UHGV virus genome: UHGV-1359266
Length of the DNA stretch: 12,986 nt
Source of the DNA: a virus
Strand: one strand, 5' to 3'
Below are positions 1,388 to 9,696 of this stretch, piece after piece. Positions within the stretch are counted from its first letter, which is position 1; every line of letters starts with the position of its first letter. The notes beneath the pieces were generated by a model. It had not been told where the DNA came from. It searched no databases and saw nothing but the letters and a program-made list of their open reading frames with translations. Position numbers and translations under genes: made by a program.

Positions 1388-1630
1388 ATGATTTTTGTTT
1401 TTGAATTTATGAATGATGAATTCGATTATGCAATTTTTAACGCATTGCATAATCCTAATTTAAGTGAATTTAATGAAATGTTTTCTGACGCTTTGAGTAT
1501 GTCAGAAGAATACTGCGGAGAATGTCAACGTGTTTGTGTGACAGTTTTTGAAAACAAAGAAAAGACATATGAAGAGTTATTCTTTGATGCTAATAAAGCC
1601 AATGAATGGTTTATTGAAAAGGGGTTTTGA
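1388..1630 (+). CDS. hypothetical acidic protein (80 aa) with CxxCxxxC
   Basis: ORF with SD AGGAG upstream. Ends 3 nt before the frd start. No family recognised. Confidence 0.5.
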   Translation: MIFVFEFMNDEFDYAIFNALHNPNLSEFNEMFSDALSMSEEYCGECQRVCVTVFENKEKTYEELFFDANKANEWFIEKGF

Positions 1631-2236
<606 letters not shown>

Positions 2237-2239
2237 AAT

Positions 2240-2587
2240 ATGAATTTTAATTATTACCCTATTCTATTAGAAAAAGACGCGAAACAGCCAAAGTGGCAGG
2301 GTCCTCAGTTTATTAAAGGTGTCTATCAATTAGTAGTTCCTAAAGACAAGATTTATAGTAGCTGTTTCACTGAATCCGCTTGCAGTATTTTCGGTAATAG
2401 TTCTCCGTATTGGAATTTTGATATAAAGCTTGACAGAAATATCGATATTTGGCTGAAAGCTATGGATATTGGTAATATCACGTTTGATGAGAATAATTAT
2501 CATATTATTGGTCGCTTTTCCAAACGCGGCAAAGAATTATATTTCACACCTGAAATTGAAAGAAAATTTGATGCAAAGCCATATTAA
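2240..2587 (+). CDS. hypothetical protein (115 aa) lying between frd and td
   Basis: ORF in the same frame as frd, separated from it only by TGA-AAT. Weak SD (CGGGG). No recognisable nuclease (GIY-YIG, HNH, LAGLIDADG) or other motif. Confidence 0.5.
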   Translation: MNFNYYPILLEKDAKQPKWQGPQFIKGVYQLVVPKDKIYSSCFTESACSIFGNSSPYWNFDIKLDRNIDIWLKAMDIGNITFDENNYHIIGRFSKRGKELYFTPEIERKFDAKPY

Positions 2588-2600
2588 TTATAGGTGCTAA

Positions 2601-3461
2601 ATGAAACAATACCAAGATTTAATTAAAAATATCCTTGAAAATGGCTATGAAACCGATGACCGAACAGGCACAGGAACAATTGCTTTGTTCGGTACTAAAT
2701 TGCGTTGGGATTTAACCAAAGGTTTTCCTGCAGTAACAACAAAAAAGCTCGCCTGGAATGCTTGTATTTCTGAGTTATTGTGGTTCTTATCAGGAAGTAC
2801 TAACGTAAATGACCTGCGTCAGCGTACTCACGGGTCTTTAATTGCAGGGAAAACGATTTGGGATGAAAATTACGAAAAACAAGCAAAAGATTTAGGATAT
2901 CATAGCGGTGAGCTTGGCCCAATTTATGGAAAACAATGGCGTGATTTTGGCGGTGTAGACCAAATTGTAGAAGTTATTGATCGTATTAAAACATTTCCTA
3001 ATGATAGACGCCAAATTGTTTCCGCGTGGAATCCGGCAGAACTTAAGCAGATGGCATTACCACCTTGTCATATGTTCTATCAGTTTAATGTTCGTAACGG
3101 ATACCTTGACCTCCAATGGTATCAACGATCAGTAGATGTTTTCCTCGGTCTTCCATTTAACATCGCGAGCTATGCTGCTCTTTTACATATTGTTGCTGAC
3201 ATGTGTGAACTAGTTCCAGGCGATTTGATATTCTCTGGTGGTAATACACACATTTATTCTAACCATATTGAGCAATGCAAAGAGATATTAAATAGAACCC
3301 CTATGGACCTATGTAAACTCAGTATTAATTGGCCTAATGGATTTAGTCAATGCGATACTGAAACTCAAATGTATTGGTTAACTGAATATATGACAGCACG
3401 AGATTTCGTTCTAAAAGATTATCAGTCCCATGGTGTCTTGAAAGGAAAGATGGCGGTGTAA
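2601..3461 (+). CDS. td: thymidylate synthase (uninterrupted ORF, 286 aa)
   Basis: Catalytic motifs seen in sequence: DRRQIVSAWNP and LPPCHMFYQF (active-site Cys). SD AGGTG upstream. The length equals recalled T4 Td (286 aa), but the ORF is continuous, so no group I intron. Confidence 0.95.
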   Translation: MKQYQDLIKNILENGYETDDRTGTGTIALFGTKLRWDLTKGFPAVTTKKLAWNACISELLWFLSGSTNVNDLRQRTHGSLIAGKTIWDENYEKQAKDLGYHSGELGPIYGKQWRDFGGVDQIVEVIDRIKTFPNDRRQIVSAWNPAELKQMALPPCHMFYQFNVRNGYLDLQWYQRSVDVFLGLPFNIASYAALLHIVADMCELVPGDLIFSGGNTHIYSNHIEQCKEILNRTPMDLCKLSINWPNGFSQCDTETQMYWLTEYMTARDFVLKDYQSHGVLKGKMAV

Positions 3462-3484
3462 TTTTAATTTAATTGTGAGGATAT

Positions 3485-3748
3485 ATGATTTTACGATTTA
3501 AAGATACTTCTGGTGTAGTTCTTTTTACACTTCCTAACCCAAGCGAGTTAGAAGTTCCAGGACCAAATCAGCCTATTATAATTTATGGCAAAAAATATTA
3601 TACTCATAAAATGACTCGTGAGTATTTTGATAATAAAATTTCCACAGTTAAAACTTCTTCTGACTGTTATTATGATATTACTGTTTTAACGGAAAAACAA
3701 TATGAAGAATTATCACCGCGCGGGCCGTCTATGCCAGGTAGTGAATAA
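3485..3748 (+). CDS. hypothetical protein (87 aa)
   Basis: ORF with SD GAGG upstream. Its 3' end overlaps the next ORF by 47 nt in a GC-rich patch. Confidence 0.45.
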
Positions 3749-4028
3749 ATATAAATCCGACTTTGATGTTAATATTCACCGTGGTACATTTTGGGGAAAT
3801 TACGTCGGTAAAGATGCTGGCAGCCGGGAGGCTGCCATTGAATTATTCAAAAAAGATTTTATACGTCGAATTAAATCCGGAGAAATAACTAAAGCACATT
3901 TAGAGCCTTTACGTGGAATGAGGCTAGGATGCACATGTAAACCGAAGCCGTGTCATGGTGATATAATAGCTCATATAGTTAACCGATTGTTTAAAGACGA
4001 TTTTCAAGTTGAGGACTTATGCAATTAA
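3702..4028 (+). CDS. hypothetical Cys/His-containing protein (108 aa)
   Basis: ORF ending 10 nt inside nrdA (translational coupling). Contains [11 protein letters not shown], a possible metal-binding motif. The start is uncertain: ATG 3702 has a weak SD and GTG 3741 is an alternative. Confidence 0.5.
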
Positions 4029-6283
4029 TTAATGTTATCAAAAGTAGTGGTGTTTCTCAGAGCTTTGACCCGCAAAAAATTATTAAAGTTTTATCTTGGG
4101 CAGCTGAAGGAACATCAGTCGATCCTTATGAATTATATGAAAATATTAAATCTTATCTCCGTGATGGAATGACAACTGATGATATTCAGACTATTGTCAT
4201 TAAGGCTGCTGCGAATTCTATTTCAGTTGAAGAGCCTGATTATCAATATGTAGCTGCACGCTGTTTAATGTTTGCTCTTCGTAAGCATGTTTATGGACAG
4301 TATGAACCGTGTTCATTTATTGACCATATTTCTTATTGTGTAAATGAAGGGAAATATGACCCTGAATTATTGTCAAAATATTCTGCAGAAGAAATTACAT
4401 TTTTAGAATCAAAAATTAAGCATGAGCGGGATATGGAATTTACTTATTCCGGGGCAATGCAATTAAAAGAAAAATATCTAGTTAAAGATAAAAGCACTGG
4501 TCAAATTTATGAAACTCCGCAGTTTGCATTTATGACTATCGGAATGGCATTGCATCAAGATGAACCTGTTGATAGATTAAAACATGTTATTCGTTTTTAT
4601 GAAGCAGTATCTACTCGACAGATTTCACTGCCAACTCCTATTATGGCTGGTTGTCGTACTCCGACTCGACAGTTTAGTTCATGCGTTGTTATTGAGGCAG
4701 GTGATTCATTGAAGTCTATCAATAAGGCTTCTGCTTCAATTGTTGAATATATTTCTAAACGTGCTGGAATTGGTATTAACGTTGGTATGATTCGTGCAGA
4801 AGGTTCTAAGATTGGTATGGGCGAAGTACGACATACTGGTGTTATTCCTTTTTGGAAACATTTTCAGACTGCTGTTAAATCGTGTTCACAGGGTGGAATT
4901 CGTGGCGGCGCTGCTACTGCTTATTATCCTATTTGGCATTTGGAAGTTGAAAATCTTCTAGTTTTAAAAAATAACAAAGGCGTAGAAGAAAACCGTATCC
5001 GTCATATGGATTATGGTGTTCAGCTGAATGATTTGATGATGGAACGTTTTGGAAAGAACGATTACATTACTTTGTTCAGTCCACATGAAATGGGTGGCGA
5101 GCTTTATTATTCTTATTTTAAAGACCAAGACCGTTTCCGTGAATTATACGAAGCAGCAGAAAAAGACCCTAATATTCGTAAAAAGCGTATTAAAGCACGT
5201 GAACTATTTGAATTGCTCATGACTGAACGCTCAGGAACAGCAAGGATTTATGTACAGTTCATTGATAACACGAATAATTATACGCCGTTTATTCGTGAAA
5301 AGGCACCTATTCGCCAGAGTAACTTGTGCTGTGAAATTGCTATTCCAACAAATGATGTGAATAGTCCTGATGCTGAAATTGGATTATGCACTTTATCTGC
5401 ATTTGTATTGGATAACTTCGATTGGCAAGACCAAGATAAAATTAATGAATTGGCAGAAGTTCAAGTTCGTGCTCTTGATAATCTGTTGGATTACCAAGGA
5501 TATCCAGTTCCTGAAGCAGAAAAAGCTAAAAAGCGTCGTAATCTTGGCGTAGGTGTTACTAACTATGCAGCTTGGCTGGCAAGTAACTTTGCTTCTTATG
5601 AAGATGCTAACGATTTAACGCATGAACTATTTGAGAGATTACAGTATGGACTCATTAAAGCATCCATTAAGCTCGCCAAAGAAAAAGGACCTTGCGAATA
5701 TTATTCAGACACTCGTTGGTCTCGAGGCGAATTACCTATCGACTGGTACAATAAAAAGATTGACCAAATCGCAGCTCCAAAATACGTTTGTGACTGGTCG
5801 TCGCTGCGGGAAGACCTTAAGCTCTTTGGCATCCGTAATAGCACATTATCAGCACTTATGCCATGTGAGTCATCTTCCCAAGTTTCTAACAGTACAAACG
5901 GTATCGAACCTCCACGTGGACCAGTCTCTGTTAAAGAGTCAAAAGAGGGTTCCTTTAATCAAGTCGTGCCCAATATTGAACATAACATAGACCTCTATGA
6001 TTATACATGGAAATTAGCTAAGAAAGGTAATAAACCGTATCTTACGCAGGTAGCTATTATGCTGAAATGGGTGTGTCAATCAGCTTCAGCGAATACATAT
6101 TATGACCCCCAAATCTTCCCTAAAGGAAAGGTTCCAATGTCAATAATGATTGATGACCTTTTGTATTTTTGGTACTTTGGTGGAAAAAATTTCTATTATC
6201 ATAATACCCGTGATGGTTCTGGTACTGATGATTATGAAATAGAAACTCCAAAAGCTGAAGATTGTTCATCCTGTAAATTATGA
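4019..6283 (+). CDS. nrdA: aerobic ribonucleotide reductase large subunit (class Ia alpha), 754 aa
   Basis: Active-site SNLCCEIAIP and the C-terminal redox Cys pair (DCSSCKL) are seen in sequence. Length matches recalled T4 NrdA (754 aa). SD GAGGA upstream. Confidence 0.96.
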   Translation: MQLINVIKSSGVSQSFDPQKIIKVLSWAAEGTSVDPYELYENIKSYLRDGMTTDDIQTIVIKAAANSISVEEPDYQYVAARCLMFALRKHVYGQYEPCSFIDHISYCVNEGKYDPELLSKYSAEEITFLESKIKHERDMEFTYSGAMQLKEKYLVKDKSTGQIYETPQFAFMTIGMALHQDEPVDRLKHVIRFYEAVSTRQISLPTPIMAGCRTPTRQFSSCVVIEAGDSLKSINKASASIVEYISKRAGIGINVGMIRAEGSKIGMGEVRHTGVIPFWKHFQTAVKSCSQGGIRGGAATAYYPIWHLEVENLLVLKNNKGVEENRIRHMDYGVQLNDLMMERFGKNDYITLFSPHEMGGELYYSYFKDQDRFRELYEAAEKDPNIRKKRIKARELFELLMTERSGTARIYVQFIDNTNNYTPFIREKAPIRQSNLCCEIAIPTNDVNSPDAEIGLCTLSAFVLDNFDWQDQDKINELAEVQVRALDNLLDYQGYPVPEAEKAKKRRNLGVGVTNYAAWLASNFASYEDANDLTHELFERLQYGLIKASIKLAKEKGPCEYYSDTRWSRGELPIDWYNKKIDQIAAPKYVCDWSSLREDLKLFGIRNSTLSALMPCESSSQVSNSTNGIEPPRGPVSVKESKEGSFNQVVPNIEHNIDLYDYTWKLAKKGNKPYLTQVAIMLKWVCQSASANTYYDPQIFPKGKVPMSIMIDDLLYFWYFGGKNFYYHNTRDGSGTDDYEIETPKAEDCSSCKL

Positions 6284-6334
6284 TATAATTTGACTCACGG
6301 ACGAGTCACTATCTATTAACTAAGCGGAAAATTT

Positions 6335-7513
6335 ATGAGCACAGTTTTTAATACAAATCCAGTTGATGTTTTAAAAGAACCGATGTTTTTTGGTTCAGGT
6401 CTTGGTATTGCGCGTTATGATATTCAACGCCATAAAGTTTTTGAAGATTTGACCGAAAAGCAATTGTCATTTTTCTGGCGGCCTGAAGAAGTAAACTTAA
6501 TGATGGATGCTGCACAATTTAATAAACTTCCTCAGTATCAGCAAAATATTTTTACTAATAACCTGAAGTATCAATCGCTTTTGGATAGCATTCAGGGTCG
6601 TGCACCGTCTGCTGTACTTATGTCATTAATTTCAGACCCAAGCCTCGATACATGGGTTGCTACATGGACTTTTAGTGAAACTATTCACAGTCGTTCATAT
6701 ACTCATATCATGCGAAATCTTTATACTGATCCATCGAAGGTGTTTGATGAGATTGTATTAGATGAAGCTATTATGAAACGTGCTGAATCTATCGGTCGCT
6801 ATTATGATGATGTTCTGATTAAAACCCGTGAATGGGAAAATGCTAAAGAATTTGTAGAACTAGCTAAAGAATCTCCTGATGCCGACTTTCGTTTAAACCG
6901 AGCTATTAAACAAGAGGCCGAAGCTAAACGTGCTTTAATGAAGTCTCTTTACCTCTGTTTACACGTTATTAATGCCTTAGAAGCTATTCGTTTTTATGTA
7001 TCTTTTGCATGTACCTTTAACTTCCATAAGAACATGGAAATCATGGAAGGTAATGCCAAGATTATGAAGTTTATTGCACGTGATGAGCAGCTTCACCTTA
7101 AAGGCACTCAATATATTATTCGTCAACTTCAACTTGGCACTGATGGCGATGAATGGGTTAAAATTGCTCAAGAGTGTGAACAAGAAGCAGTTGATATTTT
7201 CATGGAAGTTAACCGCCAAGAAAAAGATTGGGCAGTTCATTTATTTAAAGATGGCGATGTTCCTGGATTAAATACAAATAGCATGTGGAGCTTTATTGAT
7301 TACTTAACTGTATCTCGTATGAAACAGTGTGGTCTTCCATGCCCAATTACCGATGCTCCGGTTAAACATCCATATCCTTGGATTCGTGAATACCTTAATT
7401 CTGATAATGTTCAATCCGCGCCGCAAGAAGTAGAACTGTCATCTTACCTTGTAGCACAGATTGATAATGATGTTGATGATAAAGTTATGATGAGTTTTAA
7501 AAAATACTTTTAA
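6335..7513 (+). CDS. nrdB: aerobic ribonucleotide reductase small subunit (class Ia beta), uninterrupted, 392 aa
   Basis: Tyrosyl-radical region FSETIHSRSYTHI and the R2-type C-terminal tail SYLVAQIDNDVDD are seen in sequence. Continuous ORF, so no intron. Confidence 0.95.
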   Translation: MSTVFNTNPVDVLKEPMFFGSGLGIARYDIQRHKVFEDLTEKQLSFFWRPEEVNLMMDAAQFNKLPQYQQNIFTNNLKYQSLLDSIQGRAPSAVLMSLISDPSLDTWVATWTFSETIHSRSYTHIMRNLYTDPSKVFDEIVLDEAIMKRAESIGRYYDDVLIKTREWENAKEFVELAKESPDADFRLNRAIKQEAEAKRALMKSLYLCLHVINALEAIRFYVSFACTFNFHKNMEIMEGNAKIMKFIARDEQLHLKGTQYIIRQLQLGTDGDEWVKIAQECEQEAVDIFMEVNRQEKDWAVHLFKDGDVPGLNTNSMWSFIDYLTVSRMKQCGLPCPITDAPVKHPYPWIREYLNSDNVQSAPQEVELSSYLVAQIDNDVDDKVMMSFKKYF

Positions 7514-7516
7514 GGA

Positions 7517-7540
7517 GTGGGCCGCAAGGCCCATTTTATT
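7517..7540 (+). terminator. intrinsic terminator-like hairpin: GTGGGCC / GCAA loop / GGCCCAT, followed by TTTTATT
   Basis: Seen in sequence. GC-rich stem (core GGGCC/GGCCC, extendable by T-A and G-U) with a GNRA tetraloop and a T-run, placed 4 nt after the nrdB stop and ending at the denA ATG. Confidence 0.6.
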
Positions 7541-9128
<1,588 letters not shown>

Positions 9129-9131
9129 GCT

Positions 9132-9162
9132 GTTTACAAGTCCCTTATGTTGTGTTATAGTG
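9132..9162 (+). promoter_or_regulatory. T4 early-type promoter candidate: GTTTAC (9132-9137), 19-bp spacer, TG (9154-9155), TATAGT (9157-9162)
   Basis: Seen in sequence, in the rnlA-alc intergenic region upstream of SD GAGGG and the alc ATG. Confidence 0.5.
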
Positions 9163-9192
9163 GTCTTACTGGCATAACATGAGGGCTTTATA

Positions 9193-9696
9193 ATGGATTT
9201 ACAACTTATTACTACTGAAATGGTCGTTGAAGCATACGGTGATACTACAGATGGGATTTCTGTATTCAAGGGAAATCGTCGAGTTGGATATATCACCGAT
9301 CTTAAGAAAGATTTAGCAAAACAAGTCAAGCGGAAAACGACCATTAAAGAATATCGAAATCGTCGTCTTGAGCAAGCCCGTGATATGCTTCCTGATGCGG
9401 TTGAGGAGATGAAAGTCTTTTTAGAAAATCAGCTTGCGAAATATGATTGTGATGTATTCATTAATCAGACTCAACCTAATGTTCATATCAATAACTGTAA
9501 ATGTTATATTATCGTTAATCCTTTGACAGGAAAACATCGTCTTGGAATTAGTAATCCAAATCGTAGCGCATCGGATATGGCAGAAGATGTTGAGGCATGC
9601 TTTAAAATTTCTAAATCTCCGGCTGAACATCATATTTTAATTAACGGTCTTTCTCAAGACGATATTATAGAGGTTATTAAAACTTTATGCAATTAA
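9193..9696 (+). CDS. alc: Alc-like protein (inhibitor of transcription from cytosine-containing DNA), 167 aa
   Basis: Position between rnlA and pseT and the length (167 aa) match my recollection of T4 Alc. No diagnostic motif can be verified by eye, so this call rests on synteny and recall. Confidence 0.8.
   Translation: MDLQLITTEMVVEAYGDTTDGISVFKGNRRVGYITDLKKDLAKQVKRKTTIKEYRNRRLEQARDMLPDAVEEMKVFLENQLAKYDCDVFINQTQPNVHINNCKCYIIVNPLTGKHRLGISNPNRSASDMAEDVEACFKISKSPAEHHILINGLSQDDIIEVIKTLCN

Follow-up and report, generated by a model that had tools for sequence, protein, structure and literature searches.

An ordinary intron-free td gene of Tequatrovirus and its probably still usable homologue of the I-TevI homing site

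The td gene in the DNA analysed here, a window of 12,986 nucleotides from the virus genome UHGV-1359266, is in our judgement likely to be an ordinary, naturally intron-free allele of the ime09/Shfl2/JoYop td clade of Tequatrovirus, with a homologue of the I-TevI homing site that is probably still a usable target for that endonuclease. Intron-free td with an empty homing site is already known biology, and the finding matters little for this window alone. The window covers the frd-td-nrdA-nrdB-denA-rnlA-pseT region of Tequatrovirus, and its closest record is Escherichia phage JoYop, with 96% identity over the whole window. The gene was identified from the ORF list, from its Pfam family (PF00303) and by ungapped alignment to the spliced td of T4:

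2601-3461, plus strand: td (thymidylate synthase), uninterrupted, 286 codons encoding 286 amino acids

Membership of the product in the ThyA/Td family follows from a full-length profile match to PF00303 (residues 2-286 against profile positions 1-266 of 266) that scores 321 bits against a curated cut-off of 24.3 (E = 6e-96). The T4 reference, NC_000866.4, has exons of 549 nt (exon 1) and 312 nt (exon 2), separated by a 1017-nt intron that encodes I-TevI. Aligned over the whole gene to the spliced form, window td is 76.0% identical at the nucleotide level and differs at 61 amino acids, with zero gaps. The T4 exon 1/exon 2 junction thus falls between 3149 and 3150 of a single ORF, as in an intron-minus td. 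The group I intron of about 1 kb with an I-TevI ORF that td of the T4, T6 and RB3 type carries after codon 183 is missing, and the exon ends in CCTCGGT, not TTGGGT. BLAST and alignment revealed no td-intron DNA across the whole window, and BLAST revealed no I-TevI homologue there. A scan with Rfam at gathering threshold was likewise empty and is uninformative for such introns, given that a T4 control (1500-9500) also missed the group I introns of T4 td and nrdB, presumably because the ORFs inserted in them disrupt the model. An empty Rfam result thus says nothing against such introns, and the absence of an intron from window td rests on alignment and BLAST. Separately, we observed that the td intron measures 1017 nt in NC_000866.4/AF158101.6 (T4 7548-8564) and 1016 nt in nearly all other records, other T4 isolates included, which amounts to a 1-nt discrepancy in the reference record.

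Mapping of the T4 exon ends onto the gene yields the following features, with negative and positive numbers counted from the insertion site.

3120-3167, plus strand: homologue of the I-TevI homing site, 48 bp, -30 to +18, encoding YQRSVDVFLGLPFNIA; 41 of 48 positions equal the fused T4 exons
3123-3127, plus strand: CAACG cleavage motif (CNNNG), -27 to -23; same motif as in T4 at the same distance from the insertion site
3126/3127 (top strand) and 3124/3125 (bottom strand): predicted nicks in the CAACG motif, mapped from published cleavage geometry
3143-3149, plus strand: exon bases -7 to -1, CCTCGGT in the window and CTTGGGT in every intron-bearing allele read; in helix P1 these bases pair with the guide sequence of the intron
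Between 3149 and 3150, plus strand: position homologous to the T4 td intron insertion site, at the Gly183/Leu184 codon boundary (2601 + 549 = 3150 from the T4 exon 1 length)
3128 (-22): difference from T4, C to A, synonymous
3144 (-6): difference from T4, T to C, synonymous
3146 (-4): difference from T4, G to C, synonymous
3152 (+3): difference from T4, A to T, synonymous
3155 (+6): difference from T4, G to A, synonymous
3161 (+12): difference from T4, T to C, synonymous
3164 (+15): difference from T4, T to C, synonymous

I-TevI cuts 23 and 25 nt upstream of where the intron inserts (PMC2988022; geometry also in PMC5009752), and C1 and G5 of the CNNNG motif are its critical bases (PMC5009752). 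Both are present in window td, 23-27 nt upstream of the insertion site and around the native central triplet. Differences from T4 thus affect 7 of the 48 site positions and are silent in all 7 cases; four of them (-6, -4, +3 and +6) lie inside the 20-bp primary I-TevI binding region centred on the insertion site. Within 3122-3160 neither strand shows terminators, promoter-like sites occur at background level, and no minus-strand ORF of 40 or more amino acids overlaps.

Most of what the original prediction had claimed survives this mapping. It described td as one continuous 286-aa ORF, which the ungapped alignment and the lack of intron DNA in the window bear out, and it described the site as close to the T4 intron-minus homing site with several substitutions, which agrees with the 41 matches and seven silent changes. 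The T4 homing-site sequence that it gave equals the exon ends in NC_000866.4, and alignment to the T4 exons puts both the insertion point and the CAACG motif within the segment it quoted. That segment, a 47-mer, is indeed present; it occupies 3121-3167, so that the span of 3122-3160 given for it was wrong by a few bases. The assertion that td 'keeps' a near-canonical homing site is right insofar as CAACG is intact at its native distance, but the verb is too strong: none of the seven differences alters the protein, and most T4-like td genes encode this same peptide.

The resemblance has a simpler origin in the coding sequence. The first 24 nt of the T4 site find one match in the window (with one mismatch) as against none in 200 shuffles, an excess that arises because the genes are homologous. 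Ranked among all 48-nt windows of td for similarity to T4, the site stands at the 41st percentile; its DNA is not specially conserved. Most T4-like td genes from IMG/VR encode the same peptide, although their DNA has 6-20 differences from T4 in the 48 positions. The near-canonical look of the site comes from its coding for the invariant dUMP-binding active-site peptide, with drift confined to silent positions. These comparisons indicate that the likeness to the homing site is a by-product of selection on thymidylate synthase and not preservation of a homing site. The constrained active-site region of the enzyme is reportedly the very rationale for the choice of target by I-TevI, to go by the title of a 2004 paper by Edgell, Stanger and Belfort.

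Whether the drifted site can be cleaved may be judged from published work on related sequences. In the Tev-TALE assay, single spacer substitutions lowered activity at positions 2, 6 and 8 only, and cleavage of natural phage td sequences of motif plus spacer, with 53-87% identity to T4, equalled that of the T4 sequence, excepting the RB32 sequence, whose activity was reduced. The 15-nt spacer of window td carries one change, at position 1 (-22 C to A), outside the sensitive positions, and would by the standard of these assays on other sequences be expected to support cleavage. Intron-bearing T6 and RB3 have exactly this motif and spacer at the end of their exon 1. By analogy with such sites we infer that I-TevI would bind and cut this exact sequence. 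A comparison of td alleles from 17 phages further establishes that -22A and +6A are the exon state of intron-bearing T6, RB3, PST and SHFML-11, with T4 in the minority at these positions, and that +3T is present in intron-bearing pSe_SNUABM_01 and 121/2022-2B.

An alternative reading, which we consider unlikely, holds that the allele is a partially resistant variant in which the silent changes -6C, -4C and +3T in the primary binding region reduce I-TevI affinity or cleavage and slow homing, perhaps maintained by selection against the endonuclease. The diminished activity of the RB32-type cleavage motif and spacer in the Tev-TALE assay speaks for such resistance, as does the clustering around the site of differences between otherwise near-identical intron-free alleles (RB51 and RB32 have 22 of their 44 differences in nt 481-570), and Leu182 is encoded by CTC, the rarest leucine codon in the ORFs of the window (5.2%). 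However, one rare codon is no statistical evidence, and td itself uses CTC at 4 of its 29 leucine codons; +3T is compatible with the intron; and I-TevI is documented as a sequence-tolerant enzyme (PMC2988022, PMC5009752 and the Tev-TALE assay).

The substitutions at -6 and -4 could be counted for resistance as well. A 63-nt query that joined the window-type exon end to the 5' end of the intron gave 181 full-length matches in the phage collection, the best with two mismatches and none with fewer, so that among these 181 intron junctions neither -6C nor -4C stands beside an intron. The link of -6T and -4G to the intron is, however, fully accounted for by P1 pairing, and both bases are also copied from the donor. 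The exon stretch CUUGGGU, which holds both positions, pairs with the intron guide sequence GGCCUGAG; in predicted folds the T4-type exon end and the intron 5' end form an 8-bp P1 of -7.3 kcal/mol, whereas the window-type end does not form P1. Under the established double-strand-break repair model of homing, -6 and -4 would be overwritten during repair from the donor because they lie between the cut and the insertion site. Their perfect association with the intron, tied as it is to P1 pairing and obligatory co-conversion, is thus not by itself a sign of resistance; the intron always travels with the exon bases needed for P1 pairing.

Natural chimeras supply the strongest evidence that the site is a usable target. 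A search with the diagnostic part of exon 1 recovered three intron-bearing phages whose exon 1 is that of the window td clade, namely vB_EcoM_G2540-3, pSe_SNUABM_01 and 121/2022-2B (accessions MK327944, MN580668 and OR958571). Scored at 189 positions that distinguish ime09 from RB3, these genes carry the ime09-clade state up to td nt 450-462 and the RB3 state from nt 462-516 on. The RB3-type tract spans the intron, all of exon 2 and at least about 250 nt downstream; the region 3' of td is too conserved to mark its downstream end. All three junctions are different, and each lies 10-75 nt upstream of the cut at nt 524-526. Homing into this td clade, with co-conversion extending far on the 3' side, would be expected to leave such a pattern, which leans towards a recipient. 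As far as exon comparison can tell, the clade of window td has acquired the intron in nature, which counts against resistance, and the chimeric td genes record past invasions. Ordinary recombination, acting in the most conserved block of td, could also have produced the chimeras without I-TevI cleavage. The T6 td, for its part, resembles a backbone of RB51/RB32 type that carries, at nt 498-552, a patch of RB3/T4 type. The original prediction had hedged between a potential recipient for the intron and, possibly, a partially resistant variant. That caution is upheld, and the intact CNNNG, the occurrence of -22A in intron-bearing exons and the three chimeras tilt the balance towards the former.

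Were window td to act as a recipient, homing would begin with co-infection by an intron-bearing relative, whose I-TevI would bind around 3140-3160 and cleave the CAACG motif, with nicks 23 and 25 nt before the insertion point; the break would then be repaired from the intron donor. Because exon 2 of the window is only about 76% identical to that of any sampled donor, resection would have to reach far, and repair would replace the whole 3' third of td as well as the 23 nt that separate the cut from the insertion site. Replacement by donor sequence would in turn install the TTGGGT exon end that the intron requires for P1 pairing and splicing. From sequence comparison, window td can probably receive the td intron, albeit with low efficiency. 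In the 200 nt upstream of the cut its homology to donors is 86-88%, with exact runs of up to 73 nt in exon 1. For exon 2, identity to each sampled donor is 75-77% in the first 100 nt and 62-68% across 200 nt, and exact runs extend to 17-21 nt at the longest. The intron-free alleles of T2, RB51, Sf21, SsoM113 and RB32, in contrast, are 95-98.5% identical to some donor.

Divergence on this scale raises the possibility, to our minds a rather doubtful one, that the site is cleavable and the gene effectively closed as a recipient: with exon 2 too diverged, repair would mostly fail and lead to genome loss or marker exclusion instead of intron gain. The low exon 2 identity and short exact runs, set against the far closer match of the other intron-free alleles, are what this reading has in its favour. 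Flanking homology at the insertion site is also said to govern homing efficiency, a result attributed to Sandegren and Sjoberg in 2004. Yet three chimeras have exchanged their entire exon 2 for donor sequence, so long co-conversion into conserved downstream genes appears feasible, and the region 3' of td is highly similar in all phages compared. Of about 22 distinct phages whose exon 1 is of this type, only 3 carry the intron, as against roughly half of all Tequatrovirus records; the sample is small and its phages are not independent. The greater rarity of the intron in this td clade would fit reduced invasion and can be added to the points in favour of resistance.

We next consider how common these alleles are. 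Among the 50,697 records of the phage collection, about 190 carry an uninterrupted td (at least 80% query cover) and about 197 carry the td intron (at least 80% of its length), so intron-free td is ordinary. A window-type site within five mismatches occurs in 135 records of this collection, and the window-type junction has 2 matches in IMG/VR and 6 in JGI metagenomes; the exact 48-mer of the window was found in JoYop only, among the matches listed. Among natural empty sites, the type seen in the window is the commonest. As a contiguous sequence, the junction of the fused T4 exons has no match in the 50,697 records of the phage collection, and neither has that of T6/RB3, the majority intron-bearing type, which as a 26-nt pattern is also without a match in IMG/VR and in JGI metagenomes. 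Since the natural sequences searched do not contain the fused junction, what textbooks show as the homing site is a construct of the laboratory; in nature I-TevI has junctions of the window, T2 and RB32 types as its targets.

That the intron-type fused junction is nowhere found empty, as against 135, 2 and 6 window-type junctions in the three collections, can likewise be taken as a mark of resistance. A stronger version of resistance, which strikes us as improbable, is that the junction TTC CTC GGT/CTT CCA is an evolved escape haplotype, whose silent changes in the primary binding region and rare leucine codon were selected for slowing intron invasion. If true, it would explain both why the cognate junction was never found unoccupied and why intron-free diversity is concentrated in about 90 bp around the site, and it would amount to an arms race between host and homing endonuclease at synonymous sites of an essential active-site coding region. 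Should the window-type junction prove measurably resistant, it would offer a simple natural setting in which to study how a target site escapes a homing endonuclease.

The same searches bear on the idea that the allele was formerly intron-bearing and lost its intron precisely, which we hold to be very improbable indeed. The reading frame is intact exactly at the junction, and -22A and +6A agree with intron-bearing exons, as precise loss would have it. Against this, -6C and -4C are not found beside an intron in the 181 junctions, exon 2 lacks the donor-type co-conversion tract of T6 and the chimeras, and no natural empty junction of the intron type turned up in the three collections searched. 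On these three grounds precise intron loss was rejected.

Comparison with known systems places the ordinary intron-free allele among its relatives. The intron-deleted td of T4, the laboratory homing site, shares with the window the gene, the codon boundary, CAACG at -27 to -23, 41 of 48 bp and an identical peptide. It is set apart by the seven silent substitutions of the window, four of them in the primary binding region, and by the fact that the laboratory sequence is empty in no natural record searched. The td of T2 (AP018813) is similarly intron-free, with an ORF of the RB32ORF229c type upstream, an nrdB without intron and no endonuclease gene between nrdA and nrdB, and its site has -22A, -6C, +3T and +6A in common with the window. 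In contrast to the window, T2 has -7T and -4T and is without the changes at +12 and +15, and its td is 95-96% identical to intron-bearing alleles as opposed to 76-79% for window td.

Closest of all are the td genes of ime09, Shfl2, Kha5h and JoYop, which are 93-98% identical over the whole gene and have the same divergent C-terminal third. The JoYop site is identical to that of the window and the ime09 site is two positions off; ime09 has T at -22 and G at -19, where the window has the RB3/T6 state. The empty site of the RB32/RB14 type also lies in an intron-free td, with the same peptide and gene neighbourhood, but it reads CAAAG instead of CAACG and has 15 silent differences from T4 in 48 positions, so that motif and spacer of the window are far nearer to those of T4. 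A more distant parallel is the I-BmoI site in thyA of Bacillus mojavensis, where a GIY-YIG intron endonuclease targets the homologous active-site coding region of thymidylate synthase (PMC5009752); intron, insertion position and motif requirement (NNNNG) are different there, and the case is irrelevant to this phage.

The neighbourhood of td contains one optional element:

2240-2587, plus strand: ORF of 115 amino acids, RB32ORF229c type, function unknown, between frd and td (phrog_1928 match, 8e-36)

ORFs of this type are present in T2, T6, RB3, RB32, RB51 and JoYop and absent from T4, where frd and td overlap directly; the insertion therefore leaves the upstream region collinear with donors of the T6 or RB3 type, but not with a T4 donor. 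The 9-bp direct repeats mentioned in the RB32 annotation were not found flanking 2240-2587, where only non-flanking repeats at chance level occur. Homing endonuclease genes are missing from the window altogether (no homologue of I-TevI, MobE or I-TevIII), whereas T4 has three in the region and JoYop one. Specifically, the gap between nrdA and nrdB (6283-6335) contains no endonuclease gene, whereas T4 has mobE there and JoYop a homing endonuclease gene of 747 bp. The nrdB gene (6335-7513) has no intron either; the one in T4 nrdB would sit at about 7008-7011.

Several minor observations were made along the way. Two other T4-like contigs carry diverged td introns at the same insertion site, at 3550-4561 (79% nucleotide identity to that of T4) and 3563-4572 (72%); the I-TevI homologues that they encode have 76% and 67% amino acid identity, and P1 pairing is maintained in both by one-sided base changes. 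The cluster of differences around the site that separates the otherwise near-identical intron-free td genes of RB51 and RB32 is a swapped patch of 90 bp in which all changes are silent. IMGVR_UViG_3300030021_000013 (2352-3169) has a td in which exon 1 is followed by the first 151 nt of the intron (99% identical to that of T4) and then directly by the last 35 or so codons of exon 2; either it is a deletion derivative that has lost I-TevI and the greater part of exon 2, or it is an artefact of assembly. Finally, in the frd product of the window (1634-2236, 200 amino acids) the Pfam DHFR profile matches residues 22-73 only, and the PHROG dihydrofolate reductase family matches over the full length.
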